DNA of 64,000 nt from a virus. Its lineage: Duplodnaviria; Heunggongvirae; Uroviricota; Caudoviricetes. Shown here piece by piece: positions 25,524 to 35,739 of this stretch (position 1 is the first letter of the stretch; each line of letters starts with the position of its first letter). A program made the translations under genes and the position numbers. The stretch lies in IMG/VR virus record IMGVR_UViG_2880395615_000010, one strand, 5' to 3'. Below the pieces are notes generated by a model. That model worked only from the letters and a program-made list of their open reading frames with translations. It ran no database searches and was not told the DNA's origin.

Positions 25524-25991
25524 TTATTTCAGGCACTGAGTGCGGATATAGTCCTGTGCCCCTTCCAGTTGCTTGTGCATCGTCATCAGCCGCTCTCTGA
25601 GGGTGAAATAATCCCGTGTAACGGTGTCTGCCAGTTGGGGGCCGGTTGCATTATCCACGCCGGAGGTGGTGGGGGCTTCACGCACGGAGCCTGGACAGGT
25701 GGCGTTGATCCGCAGGCGCTTACGACCAGCGGCAACGTCAGCGCGAAGAGTTTCATTTTCAGCTCTCGCATCGGCTAATTCCCTCGAGTATCTGGCATCA
25801 AGTGCAGCAACATCACGCTGGCGCTGCTGCATATCAGTAATGGTTGCATTTGCCTGCTCCAGCTCACTGACTTTTTTATCGCGCTGCTCTTTGTAGGTTA
25901 TGGCGTTATCACGGTAATGATTCAGCCCCAGACTAAGCGCACCACAGGCCACCAGCAGGGCAATGATGACCACGCACAGTACGCGGTTCAT
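25524..25991 (-). CDS. Rz: Spanin inner-membrane subunit Rz, 155 aa
   Basis: N-terminal TM segment, coiled-coil body, lambda Rz-like sequence. Confidence 0.85.
   Translation of the reverse strand: MNRVLCVVIIALLVACGALSLGLNHYRDNAITYKEQRDKKVSELEQANATITDMQQRQRDVAALDARYSRELADARAENETLRADVAAGRKRLRINATCPGSVREAPTTSGVDNATGPQLADTVTRDYFTLRERLMTMHKQLEGAQDYIRTQCLK
25586..25756 (-). CDS. Rz1: Spanin outer-membrane lipoprotein Rz1, embedded in Rz in another frame
   Basis: MKLFALTLPLVVSAC lipobox followed by CVKPPPPPAWIMQP proline-rich segment. Confidence 0.75.
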   Translation of the reverse strand: MKLFALTLPLVVSACGSTPPVQAPCVKPPPPPAWIMQPAPNWQTPLHGIISPSESG

Positions 25992-26289
25992 TTCACCACC
26001 AGCGTATCTGACCGATGAAATAACCGGAGGCCATAATCACAAACACCAGCCAGATAAGAATGAACTTCCAGGTGGATAATTTTTCAGCCATCACTCGAAT
26101 CTCCCGAATCAGTTTGCTAAAATCAAACACACTTTCTCCTTTGACTTTTCCAGAGTCAGGAAACACAAAACCCCGCTTGCAGCCAACAAACGGGGTTTTT
26201 ACTTTTATTCACTTAGTTTTTGTCAGTTCGCAGGATTTCGTGTTATCCGTCCGTGTGAGCAAACCGCATTTTTCAGCAAAATATTCTGC

Positions 26290-26865: not shown

Positions 26866-27855
26866 TTATATACGTCCTTTAAGATAAGTCAGTCCTGGAT
26901 GAAACCAGTAAGCCGGCACTTTTTTAAAGGGCGGATTATCAAAATCACGAAGAAGAGCCTCCCGCACAACTGCATCCTTGTCCGCACCACTGGCCAGCGC
27001 TTCAATCTCAGCAGCTATCTGCAGATATCCCATGCAACGACCAATGCACTTCATCAGCCCCTGCTTTTTATTGTTCTTCAGGTAATCAATGGCAAATTCA
27101 ATGAGCTCCTCACTATGCTGGTGCGATGGCGGTGTTACTTTTCCATTTTCTGAGATGGTTATTTTCCCAGCATCACCGGATACAACAAAGGATGGCCGGT
27201 TACACTCCCATTCCAGGTCACTGAAATTATCATTATGAATACTGAAACACTCTGCGAGATTTCTGCTCATCACTTTCCGGCAATAATCGTAAAACGCAGC
27301 AAACTGCTCATCGCGGCGTTTTTTTTCAGGCTGCTGAAGATGCTCTTTCAACCATGAAGCGCAGCTTAGATTCGCCGCGCGATCAGGAATAGCTTCTTTC
27401 ATTTCGTCTGCTGCAAGCACCTCATTTTTTGTTGGGGTGCTTTTTTTCAATTCAGCGATATAGCACTCCAGTTTTTCAATACGCGATTCAACATCATCTT
27501 TTTCTGACCGCAGTGTTGACGGCGGCATCTTCAGAGAACAAGTAATTCTTCCCGGTAGCTTTCCTTTGTAGGTTATCAATACATCCTGCGCATCTAAAAT
27601 TACGGGGCGCTTTTCCGGTGACGGTTCATCCCCTTCGCATAACCCGGCAACAATATCCATGAAAAACTGCTTCGCCTGTTTTTTCGCCTCAGCTTCGTAG
27701 AACTCCAGCGTGGCACCTTCAGTACGGTCAAGACTAATCGCCACATGTGGCAACAACAACGACGGATGCCCGCCAATTTCAAGTGCCACAGTAACAGCAA
27801 TCTTATCCGGGTAATTATTTATCTCTTTAACAACCAGTTCGTATTTTTTCTTCAT
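26866..27855 (-). CDS. Uncharacterised 329-aa protein inserted between holin and endolysin
   Basis: Uninterrupted ORF tightly packed between S and R; no family recognised; no TM segments evident. Confidence 0.6.
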   Translation of the reverse strand: MKKKYELVVKEINNYPDKIAVTVALEIGGHPSLLLPHVAISLDRTEGATLEFYEAEAKKQAKQFFMDIVAGLCEGDEPSPEKRPVILDAQDVLITYKGKLPGRITCSLKMPPSTLRSEKDDVESRIEKLECYIAELKKSTPTKNEVLAADEMKEAIPDRAANLSCASWLKEHLQQPEKKRRDEQFAAFYDYCRKVMSRNLAECFSIHNDNFSDLEWECNRPSFVVSGDAGKITISENGKVTPPSHQHSEELIEFAIDYLKNNKKQGLMKCIGRCMGYLQIAAEIEALASGADKDAVVREALLRDFDNPPFKKVPAYWFHPGLTYLKGRI

Positions 27856-27859
27856 CGCT

Positions 27860-28066
27860 TTAGTCTCCCCGCGCCGTCTTACGGCGGTCCTCCCTGATTT
27901 TGAAATACAGGTTAGTCAGATACGTCAGCAGGCCAAACAGCAGACTCCCCAGTACACCTATTGCCACCCACTGGGACGGAGAGACTTTGTCCAGCAGCTG
28001 CAGTAACCAGTATCCCGTCCCCACCGCTGACGTGGTGTATGACACACCCGTTGTGATTTTTTCCAT
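27860..28066 (-). CDS. S: Class II holin (phage 21 S-like pinholin), about 68 aa
   Basis: [63 protein letters not shown] resembles S21; the ORF-track start at 28135 may give a longer form. Confidence 0.8.
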
Positions 28067-28321
28067 CTGATGTATGTCTCCGTCACCGCCGACAGAAAAT
28101 GAAAGTAAAGGAAAACAAAAAGCCGCCAGTGTCACCCACTGACGGCCAACTCCGGGAGCCGTGATTATGGCATTCAGGCTCTGCTAAAAATGCCAGATAA
28201 CATTCCGACCAACCCCTGATTCAGGTTATAAATGACACAATATCTTGACAACATCCGTCACTGTCTGTCAGAAAATGTACTGCTAAATATAAGTATCATG
28301 TGAAGTACATCTACCCGTTTT

Positions 28322-28358: not shown

Positions 28359-28733
28359 TTATGCTGCCGGTGCATTTATCTCCAGCATCAGACTTTCTAT
28401 CTCAACGCCATACGCTGCATTTTTTGTAACATCCGTCAGCGTCAGCGCATTCAGTCCCAGTGTCAGACTGTCTTTTATAACCTGGAATGCCGGGCCAGCC
28501 ACTCCATTCAGTTTCGGAGTAACCGTGGCACTGCCGGCGGTGAACACCAGCTCCAGCGTCTGCCAGTCGTTACCGTAATCGCCGAACTCCCCCAGCTTCG
28601 TGTTTCCGGCTTTCCTGTGATGCATCAGATTCACTCTGCCGTCAGTGGTCTGAGTGAAGTACGACATCAGGAACGGATCCCCCCAGCAGCTCATCCAGAA
28701 TGGCATCCACTTCAGCATCAAGACGCGCCTCAA
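28359..28733 (-). pseudogene. C-terminal fragment paralogous to the 217-aa protein at 29202-29855
   Basis: Translation ...AGNTKLGEFGDYGNDWQTLELVFTAG...VTPKLNG aligns with the C-terminal about 100 aa of the upstream protein; N-terminal part missing. Confidence 0.4.
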
Positions 28734-28833
28734 GATTCTGGCGGAGTTGCTGTTTCAGTGCGCTTCTGACTTCTTCAGAGCGCAGGACGTCCTTCACTGC
28801 TTCAGCAGTGACCAGAGATTTTATTTCTGACAT
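28642..28833 (-). CDS. Small charged helical protein, 63 aa
   Basis: MSEIKSLVTAEAVKDVLRSEEVRSALKQQLRQNLEARL...; 3' end overlaps the fragment above out of frame. Confidence 0.3.
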   Translation of the reverse strand: MSEIKSLVTAEAVKDVLRSEEVRSALKQQLRQNLEARLDAEVDAILDELLGGSVPDVVLHSDH

Positions 28834-29201
28834 GGGATTTTCTCGTTGAAAGGTGTTGTTAAGAAAGTTGCTACGAAATGAGAGGCTCTTCGGGTTTTGT
28901 TCCGGCTGACTGGCTGGCGCTGATTTTTTCCGCCGCCGCGGCATCAATCTTTTTGCGTATATAGTTCCGGATAACCTTATACCCGCCACTTACCAGATAT
29001 AACGTGCACACCACCGTGCAGAAATACAATAAAATAAGCTGTACAAATCTCATTATCCCTCCCGGTTATTGATATGGTGTTGACATCGTTAATACCTGTT
29101 GGTTAAAAAAGTGTCCTGCATGTTTTGCTTTGGATATAACGACATTTGCCGCCGGTTCTGGCTCCTTGTTTTCCCTGCCCCGGCGGCCTTTTTTTTCCTG
29201 C

Positions 29202-29855
29202 TTACGGGTTATTCACTTCCACTGTTATACTTTCAATCAGCACCGGATATGTCGCACCGCTAGTGATATCGGTCACGCGCAATTTGTCTGCCGTAAACGT
29301 GCCGACCGGTGACTGTGACAGCATGAACGGCGTCCCGTCCTTACCATCAATGACCGGCGTCACCTCAATACTGTTGTTACCGGCAAAACGGAAGCCCAGC
29401 GTATGCCATTCGTTATCAAATGCGCCGAATGACCCCAGCTTCGTGTTCTGACCAGCATTTCCCTTGTAGTACATCACATTAAGGTCTGTGGCATCGCTCT
29501 GTACGTAAAACGACGCCAGCAGGTTATGACCGGCATTACCTTCCAGTGTGACGCCCTGAGGCAGTGAAGAAACCGGCCAGTACAGCGCCAGTGCGTACTG
29601 ATTAGCTGTCAGTATGCCATCAACTTTAAAACGACAACTGATAAGCCCGCCCTTCTCCAGCAGGTCTGCGCCATTACCGGCATCATGCTGCATAAACCAC
29701 GAGGAACTTCCTGTCTGTTTGGTCCACCTCAGCGCCTTACCTCCTGCAGCACCTGCATCATCAACTACCAATGCACGCCCTCCTTCAGCTCCCCATCCCT
29801 GCGGATTCAGTAAACCACCTGACTCTGTTGCACGGTAATAAAGCAGCGTTGTCAC
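29202..29855 (-). CDS. Conserved prophage protein, 217 aa (possible beta-sandwich/carbohydrate-binding type)
   Basis: ATGA overlap with the upstream DUF1737-like gene; paralogous fragment downstream. Confidence 0.55.
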   Translation of the reverse strand: MTTLLYYRATESGGLLNPQGWGAEGGRALVVDDAGAAGGKALRWTKQTGSSSWFMQHDAGNGADLLEKGGLISCRFKVDGILTANQYALALYWPVSSLPQGVTLEGNAGHNLLASFYVQSDATDLNVMYYKGNAGQNTKLGSFGAFDNEWHTLGFRFAGNNSIEVTPVIDGKDGTPFMLSQSPVGTFTADKLRVTDITSGATYPVLIESITVEVNNP

Positions 29856-30321: not shown

Positions 30322-30657
30322 ATGAAGTGGATTGTGATTGATACAGTTATCCAGCCATCATGCGGAATATCTTTTTCAGTCATATGGAGTAAAATAAAAT
30401 TAATAATCTGGTATCAATCGGATGCTTTCTTACCTCCTGAAAGTATATTTACACTGACTCACACAGGTATCATGCTCAATAACAAAGTGCTACCTGTAAC
30501 CATTTACAACGTAGTACCATTCAATAAAACATTCTGGAATTTAATCAAAAACAGCCAGGAATGCCCTACAAATACAGATAACGTATTGAATGAATGCTTT
30601 AATAACCGTTGCACTCTGCAAATATGTCCTTATGGACTAAAACAGCAAAGTCCATAA
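30322..30657 (+). CDS. Hypothetical AT-rich cysteine-containing protein, 111 aa
   Basis: SD AAGGA 7 nt upstream of ATG; candidate -35 TTTACA / -10 TATACT upstream; opposite strand to all flanking phage genes. Confidence 0.45.
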
Positions 30658-30699
30658 GGAGTTTACTCACATCTGACAAAATCAATATAAACAGCCCCT

Positions 30700-30722
30700 C
30701 CGGAGAGGGGCTGGAGAGTGGC
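30700..30722 (-). terminator. Hairpin likely terminating the tRNA transcript
   Basis: cagcccctctccggaggggctg followed by a T-rich tract on the minus strand. Confidence 0.4.
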
Positions 30723-30948
30723 GCTATGTGCCATTGCATGGTGCCGGGTGCCTCCCGGTGAATTCAGTACCAGCACCTGAATCCGCGATTATCCCATATA
30801 CCTACTCGCTGATTGCCCCTCCGCACAGGGGGATTCACCATGCCAGTTTCTTTTAACAAACTCCCCGCAAACCAGACAACAGTCAACCGCCTGAATTGTG
30901 AGACATTTAAAAAAAAAGCCCGCAAAAGCGAGCCAGGGAAAATAAGTG

Positions 30949-31025
30949 TGGCGCGTTGTACTGGATTCGAACCAGTGACCGATTGCTTAGAAGGCAATTG
31001 CTCTGTCCGGCTGAGCTAACAACGC
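30949..31025 (-). tRNA. argO: tRNA-Arg (anticodon UCU)
   Basis: Perfect cloverleaf: acceptor gcgttgt/acaacgc, anticodon loop CTTCTAA, T-loop TTCGAAT, encoded CCA. Confidence 0.8.
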
Positions 31026-31038
31026 AGGATACAGATAA

Positions 31039-31116
31039 TGGACCGCCTTCGGGGACCCGAACTCCGCGCAACCAGCTTCGAAAGCTGGCGCTCTTTCCTG
31101 ATGAGCTAATGGCGGT
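31039..31116 (-). tRNA. argN: tRNA-Arg-like (anticodon read as UCG), imperfect stems
   Basis: Perfect anticodon stem ccagc/gctgg with loop TTTCGAA, but one mismatch each in the acceptor and T stems. Confidence 0.5.
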
Positions 31117-31122
31117 ATGTGA

Positions 31123-31198
31123 TGGTGGCCCTTGCTGGATTTGAACCAGCGACCTGGCGATTATGAGTCGCTCGCTCTCACCACTGAGCTAAAGGGCC
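31123..31198 (-). tRNA. ileZ: tRNA-Ile2 (anticodon CAU, ileX/ileZ-like)
   Basis: ggccctttagctcagtggtgagagc...ctCATaa...ggttcaaatccagcaagggccacca, very close to E. coli ileX from memory. Confidence 0.85.
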
Positions 31199-35292: not shown

Positions 35293-35448
35293 TTACTCCT
35301 CAGGTTCGTAAGCTGTGAAGACAGCGACCTCCGTCTGGCCGGTTCGGAGTCGTACCTCGCAGAGGTCTTTCCTCGTTACCAGTGCCGTCACAATGACGGT
35401 TAAACAGATGACGATCAGGGCGATAAGCATCGCCTTTTGCTGCTTCAT
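35293..35448 (-). CDS. hok: Hok/Gef-family type I toxin, 51 aa
   Basis: MKQQKAMLIALIVICLTVIVTALVTRKDLCEVRLRTGQTEVAVFTAYE matches the Hok pattern; SD AAGGAG upstream. Confidence 0.75.
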   Translation of the reverse strand: MKQQKAMLIALIVICLTVIVTALVTRKDLCEVRLRTGQTEVAVFTAYEPEE

Positions 35449-35739
35449 AGCCTGCTTCTCCTTGCCTTTCGGCACGTAAGAGGCTAACCTACGTGTGTAG
35501 AGCATAGATATGGCCTCAGATTAATGTTAAGCGTCTTGCCGGACGCGTAATGTTAACTGGGGCTTTTCTCTATCTGCCTTTTGGTGTTCATGCCTGAGAC
35601 AGATAGCCTCAAGCACCCGCAGCAATTCTACTTAACTCTCCTTTTCCCGCAAACCGTTTTTATCCCCAGCGGCAAATCGAATACACCACCAGCGTCACCG
35701 CCATCGCAATTCCTACCGTTGTGAATGCCTCAGGCCAGG

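Follow-up and report, generated by a model that had tools for sequence, protein, structure and literature searches.

The window analysed here is a stretch of 64,000 nucleotides from a virus of the Caudoviricetes (IMG/VR record IMGVR_UViG_2880395615_000010), and the element in question is a gene of 329 codons on its minus strand (26866-27855), located between a holin gene and a lysozyme gene. This gene belongs to the YdfR/DUF1327 prophage family as one of its ordinary long forms, lies in the place usual for that family in E. coli lambdoid prophages, and is not a gene of an undescribed kind. The evidence gives good support to its being an accessory, moron-like late gene with a cytoplasmic product. 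As regards function, the best explanation is held tentatively: the DUF1327 domain may bind RNase E or RNA, the C-terminal domain may add a second activity, and the protein would then modulate RNA decay late in infection.

Family membership and distribution

The N-terminal part of the protein (amino acids (aa) 1-100) aligns with profile positions 1-88 of the 93 of DUF1327 (PF07041) with a score of 132.1 bits (cut-off 25; E = 8.5e-39), and the whole protein (aa 1-329) matches phrog_1085 from end to end (profile positions 1-296 of 296, E = 2.5e-180). The residues that are near-invariant in an alignment of 27 diverse DUF1327 members (Y5, E6, L7, V9, V21, E46, G47, Y53, E54 and A57) are all kept. 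Close homologs are named 'YdfR family protein' in RefSeq and in nr, and the PHROG matches, eight of eight, belong to the category 'unknown function'. The open reading frame (ORF) is a real gene and not a chance reading frame, because it has the DUF1327 match, the full-length PHROG match, a Shine-Dalgarno sequence and a ratio of nonsynonymous to synonymous substitution rates (dN/dS) of approximately 0.25. The original prediction, made from the letters of the window and their translations, had ranked this ORF as its top candidate for something undescribed; that ranking is not supported, since the family is catalogued (YdfR/DUF1327, phrog_1085) and occupies the same slot in the Qin prophage of K-12 and in phages carrying Shiga toxin 2 (Stx2).

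YdfR of E. coli K-12 (b1555, Qin prophage) is 41% identical to the N-terminal domain of the window protein over residues 1-74 (E = 1e-17). The order of genes in Qin, which is essQ (holin), a 4-nt gap, ydfR, rrrQ (177-aa lysozyme) and rzpQ/rzoQ, is that of the slot in the window, and neither of the two proteins has a membrane segment. They differ in length: K-12 YdfR has 103 aa (DUF1327 plus a short tail), whereas the window protein adds approximately 255 residues, which form a helical middle and a C-terminal domain of 119 aa. The relatives in Stx phages are closer. The protein of the Stx2a phage Stx2_95 (BCI50300) is 94.5% identical and has the same architecture and slot, and gp05 of Stx2 phage 86 is a 268-aa 'YdfR family protein' in the same slot. 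Nothing essential distinguishes these long forms from the window gene; some copies lack the insert at aa 141-176, and some Stx-phage or phrog_1085 long forms are followed by a convergent gene, phrog_1853, which the window lacks.

The family is common. Of 5426 complete E. coli genomes, 2389 (approximately 44%) contain part of the ORF and 491 contain at least 80% of it, so that the gene can be regarded as a passenger of this type of cassette, one of the two findings that the original prediction had said would together refute it. The 2.8-kb cassette occurs at 100% identity in E. coli 2013C-4465, D1, O55:H7 DEC5B and others, and these identical cassettes place the window in E. coli, as a lambdoid prophage that lacks stx. 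When 1.84 billion representative proteins were searched exhaustively with a HMMER profile, only 106 relatives were returned, including divergent carriers of the C-terminal domain. A scan of species-representative genomes found the gene in Escherichia and Shigella only; metagenome and pathogen assemblies were the source of the divergent members.

The family is modular. It comprises DUF1327-only proteins of approximately 100-117 aa, proteins with the N-terminal and middle modules (183-211 aa), proteins with the C-terminal half only (185-213 aa) and long fusions (268-333 aa). C-termini are interchangeable across the family lengths of 329, 305, 296, 268, 211 and 185 aa, that of the 305-aa form being different and unrelated.

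The profile searches that had been suggested with the original prediction found the DUF1327 and phrog_1085 families, and no characterised lysis accessory family. More generally, no characterised lysis-accessory, defence or virulence family was matched in Pfam, PHROG, NCBIfam or PADLOC, and no similarity to a lysis-annotated family was seen in PHROG or Pfam. NCBIfam gave matches at chance level only (HpnC, E = 0.065; CdaM, E = 0.18). PADLOC-DB v2 gave no defence family at E ≤ 1 for the 329-aa protein, and for the variants and the convergent gene it gave nothing except one chance-level match to JetA (E = 0.045). In the literature, no paper was found that assigns a role to the ORF separating S from R in Stx-type phages.

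The slot between holin and lysozyme

The gene is tightly packed between a pinholin and a signal-arrest-release (SAR) lysozyme, as had been predicted: the ORF is intact and both neighbours are identified (Table 1). It is separated from the holin stop codon by 4 nt and from the lysozyme ATG by 42 nt; the first gap had been given correctly in the original prediction and the second as 43, a trivial off-by-one. No sigma-70-like promoter was found by a consensus scan of the minus strand from 25 to 33 kb, which is consistent with the predicted co-transcription with the lysis genes. A terminator-like hairpin precedes the holin gene, and an antiterminated late transcript would therefore need to read through it. 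The lack of a promoter of its own and the presence of this hairpin would fit expression of the gene within such a transcript.

Two surveys define how the slot is occupied. The first used 83 loci fetched via the C-terminal domain, and in all of them (83/83) the holin and lysozyme flanks that were detected had the order S21-type holin, gene, lysozyme; three of the 83 lacked one or both flanking genes. The second used 80 loci fetched via the holin (at least 93% identical), 74 of which could be classified. In 17 of these, a phage-21/RrrD-type SAR lysozyme of 165 aa abuts the holin with no gene between them, and YdfR-family modules were found in none of the 17. Another 56 have the 177-aa RrrQ-type lysozyme, and 51 of them carry YdfR-family modules: N-terminal plus middle in 35, N-terminal only in three, all three modules (the form of the window) in six, and middle plus C-terminal in seven; the other five carry none. 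The last locus (1/74) has the N-terminal and middle modules, with a flank too short to show the lysozyme.

This survey of presence and absence, which the original prediction had called for, shows that an occupied slot is the rule in the sampled cassettes with the 177-aa lysozyme (51/56) and does not occur in those with the R21 type (0/17). The predicted norm of holin, endolysin and spanin genes in tight succession accordingly stands for cassettes with the phage-21-type lysozyme and fails for those with the 177-aa type. The gene is not a core component of lysis, because essentially the same holin functions in cassettes that lack it. In O157:H7, a protein with only the C-terminal half fills the same slot alone. 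The slot is a hotspot for the shuffling of modules. It was also observed that near-identical holins (at least 93%) are paired with both types of SAR lysozyme, R21/RrrD of 165 aa and RrrQ of 177 aa.

In distant relatives, whose C-terminal domain is approximately 35-43% identical, the gene lies between the antiterminator gene Q (PF06323) and a holin that is usually of the HP1 type. This holin gene is followed by a lysozyme gene in two loci, and by Rz as well in two. These relatives had no match among the complete E. coli genomes; the DNA that flanks them is similar to Salmonella Gifsy-2 and Fels-1. Their location between Q and the holin indicates conservation of a position next to the lysis genes, at the promoter-proximal end of the late operon, and not of the exact gap between holin and lysozyme. 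Two of them (L091 3639-4945; L090 1089-2377) overlap by 4 nt with the end of an upstream gene for a DUF4406 (nucleoside 2-deoxyribosyltransferase-like) protein, an overlap that suggests translational coupling, and in three loci a HicAB toxin-antitoxin pair lies on the opposite strand between Q and the long YdfR gene.

Domain organisation, selection and composition

The protein can be divided into an N-terminal DUF1327 domain, a variable middle and a C-terminal domain (Table 1). The full-length AlphaFold2 model is poor, with a predicted local distance difference test (pLDDT) score of 49 and values of 63-88 over aa 1-70. Only the C-terminal domain, modelled domain-wise on a more diverse alignment (aa 211-329), gave a usable structure, with a pLDDT of 86.5 and a predicted template modelling (pTM) score of 0.80. 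The middle consists of a linker (76-117), a predicted coiled-coil helix (approximately 118-140), an optional insert (approximately 141-176) and a helix, 'KKRRDEQFAAFYDYC' (177-205).

The C-terminal domain contains the invariant motif G-R-x-M-G-x-L-Q-x-A-A-E ... D-N-P-P-F-K ... W-x-x-P-G-x-x-Y-L, its invariant positions being defined by divergent carriers at 34-43% identity. It has no match in Pfam, a profile search of the PDB gave nothing below E = 0.045, and comparison of its model with BFVD gave no match at E ≤ 0.001. Given that these three sources were uninformative, the domain is an orphan, catalogued only within PHROG families of the category unknown function. Two candidate relationships were rejected. 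Both terminal domains begin with a beta-meander followed by a helix, and the possibility that the C-terminal domain is a diverged duplicate of DUF1327 was compared by hhalign, with a probability of 0.1%. The full-alignment profile search of the PDB also returned PARP-1 BRCT chains (E = 0.006-0.12, profile positions 114-185), which fall on the charged helical linker, a part of low confidence; Pfam does not reproduce them, and they lack structural support.

The 329-aa protein has no membrane segment, its Kyte-Doolittle maximum being 1.09 over 19 residues. The corresponding maxima are 1.83 for the holin, 1.74 for the lysozyme (in a weakly hydrophobic, SAR-like N-terminal segment that starts at aa 9) and 2.82 for Rz. 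The protein thus has none of the features by which a holin, an antiholin or a membrane-acting lysis regulator would be recognised, that is, a transmembrane segment, a SAR segment or a signal peptide.

Both terminal domains are under purifying selection. The median dN/dS, taken from pairwise Nei-Gojobori values among diverged copies, is 0.26 for the DUF1327 domain and 0.25 for the C-terminal domain, compared with 0.07 for the holin, 0.07 for the lysozyme and 0.34 for Rz. The GC content at third codon positions is 0.44 in the gene and 0.58-0.67 in the neighbouring genes, a composition that is foreign to the cassette and moron-like.

A convergent gene associated with the C-terminal domain

Among 59 distinct slots with the C-terminal domain, 23 have a gene of approximately 105 aa, phrog_1853, on the opposite strand directly after the gene carrying that domain; among the 28 slots with only N-terminal or N-terminal plus middle modules, none has it (Fisher's exact test, p = 4e-5, for slots that are not phylogenetically independent). 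Copies include gp06 of Stx2 phage 86 (L176 4302-4616) and those at L093 4807-5124, L090 2378-2713 and L095 585-902, and the protein is conserved at 37-41% identity in the distant relatives. It belongs to the PHROG category unknown function and has no Pfam or PADLOC match. In three cassettes of the RrrQ type, the space between the flanking genes is a 687-bp filler that holds only this gene. Judging from this association, the phrog_1853 protein may be a functional partner of the C-terminal domain; the gene is not present in the window.

A possible link to RNase E

[quoted passage not shown] Residues 1-72 of K-12 YdfR were recovered in a two-hybrid screen with RNase G as bait, and the full-length protein gave a two-hybrid signal with Rne residues 1-597 (PMC13232886). 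Furthermore, Strep-YdfR carried Rne residues 1-598 along on purification, the YdfR eluates were enriched in RNA, and the surface that interacts with RNase E was located within residues 1-72 of YdfR (PMC13232886). Standard growth gave almost no RNA-seq reads from ydfR (PMC13232886), which fits a prophage gene that is expressed late.

The window gene is read as an accessory of a lambdoid prophage's Q-dependent late operon, outside the machinery that disrupts the envelope, and its product as a soluble cytoplasmic protein made only after induction, alongside the holin, the lysozyme and the spanins. If the properties of K-12 YdfR extend to this protein, the following mechanism can be proposed. Its DUF1327 domain, at the N-terminus, would dock on host RNase E, at the catalytic N-terminal half of the enzyme, and possibly on RNA; the helical middle would be a spacer or an oligomerisation element; and the orphan C-terminal domain would supply a second binding or effector activity. 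Jointly, these parts would alter or redirect the RNA decay that depends on RNase E, at a late stage of infection.

Phage proteins that bind RNase E's catalytic domain or modulate the degradosome include phiKZ Dip, T7 gp0.7 and T4 Srd. A functional analogy with these and with the host proteins RapZ and RraA would be possible if DUF1327 binds the N-terminal domain of RNase E; no homology was detected, the phage examples not having been compared.

Several observations weigh against a role in RNA decay. The interaction with RNase E is known only from a short homolog that is 41% identical, overexpression of which altered few transcripts and left growth unaffected (PMC13232886). The C-terminal domain, which is the larger conserved part of the protein, has no known function related to RNase E. 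A Foldseek search of the PDB with the low-confidence model of the N-terminal domain returned only double-stranded RNA-binding domains of ADAR (E = 0.3-1.2) and nothing at E ≤ 0.001. The main weakness lies in the proteins with the C-terminal half only, which hold the same slot without any DUF1327 domain and imply that selection on the slot does not require the putative RNase E-binding domain.

Alternative explanations

The first alternative is that the protein is a cytoplasmic regulator of lysis timing or endolysin release. It would be a functional counterpart of an antiholin or of Mu releasin, with specificity for either the RrrQ-type SAR lysozyme or the single-start S21-type holin. The linkage of the modules to the 177-aa lysozyme and their absence beside the R21 type would be expected in that case, and the location of the Shine-Dalgarno sequence inside the end of the holin gene allows translational coupling. 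The holin itself also favours this explanation: the 13 codons 5' of its start (upstream region to 28106) contain no ATG, GTG or TTG in frame, which leaves it with a single start and without the dual-start antiholin arrangement (S71/S68) of phage 21 S. The S21-71 and S107 antiholins, P1 LydB, T4 RI and Mu releasin lie, like the window gene, in or beside a holin-endolysin cassette and are expressed late. Most accessory lysis regulators act in or at the membrane or in the periplasm. The window protein shares no sequence similarity with them in any library and has no hydrophobic segment, no signal peptide and no match to a PHROG of the lysis category. Beside near-identical lysozymes the slot holds N-only, C-only or N+C forms, a variety that speaks against a single, specific regulatory contact; distant relatives lie 5' of a holin of a different family, and the linkage to the type of lysozyme can be simple co-inheritance of adjacent DNA. 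The Keio deletion of ydfR is among the hits of a screen for envelope permeability (PMC3879167, supplement; cited in PMC13232886), a phenotype that may instead be due to polarity of the kan cassette on rrrQ, directly downstream. Lysis regulation, which the original prediction had listed among its options, is therefore unlikely as a direct role, in view of the 17 loci without the gene, the lack of a membrane segment and the distant relatives 5' of the holin.

It has also been considered that the gene is a moron of conflict or lysogen benefit (superinfection exclusion, abortive infection, anti-defence or inter-phage competition) that evolves by rapid swapping of modules. Its foreign composition would agree with this, as would its location in the moron-rich region from Q to the lysis genes, which also hosts stx and nanS-p, its extreme mosaicism with interchangeable C-termini, its narrow taxonomic range (106 representatives among 1.84 billion proteins) and the convergent phrog_1853 partner, found with the C-terminal domain in 23 of the 59 distinct slots and in distant relatives. 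On the other hand, PADLOC gave no match for the protein, its variants or the partner gene beyond the chance-level JetA, the partner is missing from the window, and expression in the lysogen is not expected in the absence of a promoter-like site on the strand of the gene, in line with the near absence of K-12 ydfR reads under standard growth (PMC13232886). This explanation is considered quite improbable.

That the ORF is a decaying or non-functional passenger, a relic of fusion between recombining cassettes, is suggested by the RefSeq label of truncated YdfR pseudogene at an identical locus and by the many truncated or rearranged forms of the family, and is nevertheless highly implausible given an intact ORF with identical or near-identical copies in many genomes, a dN/dS of approximately 0.25 in both terminal domains, and a C-terminal domain that keeps its invariant motifs down to approximately 35% identity and has a confident fold prediction.

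Features of the cassette and its surroundings

Table 1. Features of the lysis cassette, with the domains encoded by the YdfR-family gene (positions in the window)
Feature	Position	Strand	Basis
YdfR-family long-form gene (subject)	26866..27855	-	329-codon ATG-initiated ORF; DUF1327 and phrog_1085 matches; RefSeq 'YdfR family protein'
N-terminal DUF1327 domain, aa 1-75	27631..27855	-	Three beta strands then helix; homologous to RNase E-binding segment of K-12 YdfR
Variable middle, aa 76-210	27226..27630	-	Sub-segments present or absent among aligned homologs; helices predicted at low confidence
C-terminal orphan domain, aa 211-329 (119 aa)	26869..27225	-	Three-stranded beta-meander and four helices (predicted)
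Shine-Dalgarno GGGGAGA of the 329-aa ORF	27864..27870	-	8 nt 5' of ATG, within last holin codons
S21-type class II holin (pinholin family), 68 aa	27860..28066	-	Pfam Phage_holin_2_1 (PF04971, phage 21 holin S), E = 1.4e-32
Terminator-like hairpin just 5' of holin	28121..28147	-	11-bp stem, 7 G-C pairs, T-rich tail; consensus scan only
RrrQ-type lysozyme, 177 aa	26290..26823	-	Phage_lysozyme PF00959, E = 2.6e-24
Small 57-aa ORF between lysozyme and Rz	25993..26166	-	phrog_6632 (category: unknown function), E = 1.4e-29
Rz i-spanin	25524..25991	-	PF03245, E = 2.2e-47
Rz1 o-spanin, 61-aa ORF embedded in Rz	25586..25771	-	Lipobox-like 'VVSAC'

The product of the 57-aa ORF that separates lysozyme and Rz ends in a hydrophobic stretch (…WKFILIWLVFVIMASGYFIGQIRWW); it may be yet another small membrane protein of the cassette.

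The annotation of the gene itself is not uniform. In NZ_CP015241.1 (L002 9446-9781), where the cassette is 100% identical, PGAP calls the first 112 codons a 'YdfR family protein' pseudogene 'missing C-terminus' and leaves approximately 650 bp of the intact 329-codon ORF unannotated. This call is probably an artefact of a short family model.

The ORFs 5' of the holin (28359-29855, minus strand) correspond in RefSeq to truncated DUF6645 (NanS-p-like esterase), DUF826 and DUF1737 pseudogenes. Further upstream, a 111-aa ORF of low GC content (0.32-0.35) on the plus strand (30322-30657) is annotated in the identical RefSeq locus as the anti-adapter IraM, a typical moron expressed in lysogens. Three tRNA genes (30683-31198, minus strand) have the anticodons CAT (Met by ARAGORN, Ile in RefSeq), TCG (Arg) and TCT (Arg), and a match to the small RNA (sRNA) STnc100 (132 bits) comes after them. 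Such a tRNA cluster is typical of the region from Q to S in Stx-type prophages, and the stx genes are absent from the window. The region from the tRNA genes to the holin looks partly decayed, and the lysis cassette is intact. Standard early-region features of lambdoid prophages are also present, namely a sok antitoxin RNA (Rfam, 117 bits; 35443-35618, minus strand), which a hokD-type toxin adjoins in the identical RefSeq locus, and the sRNA DicF (Rfam, 77 bits; 41196-41247, plus strand).

Implications for the YdfR family

A bolder version of the proposed link to RNase E, to which we give little credence, is that YdfR-family proteins in general are modular RNase E adaptors, in which DUF1327 serves as a dock and the interchangeable C-terminal modules retarget or block host RNA decay at the time of late expression and lysis. 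The orphan C-terminal domain would count among these modules and would at times have phrog_1853 as its partner. If this were the case, the slot between holin and lysozyme of Stx-type prophages would be a hotspot for the manipulation of RNA decay.

From a practical point of view, the family contains a conserved C-terminal domain of 119 aa that has no Pfam family, and an intact gene is mis-annotated by RefSeq in at least one genome. In pathogenic E. coli, induction of Stx-converting and related prophages leads to strong transcription of the slot. If the link of K-12 YdfR to RNase E extends to the family, these genes would represent a temperate-phage factor that acts on host RNA decay in the late phase, and such a link could affect late transcripts, including stx read-through, as well as burst size or the timing of lysis.

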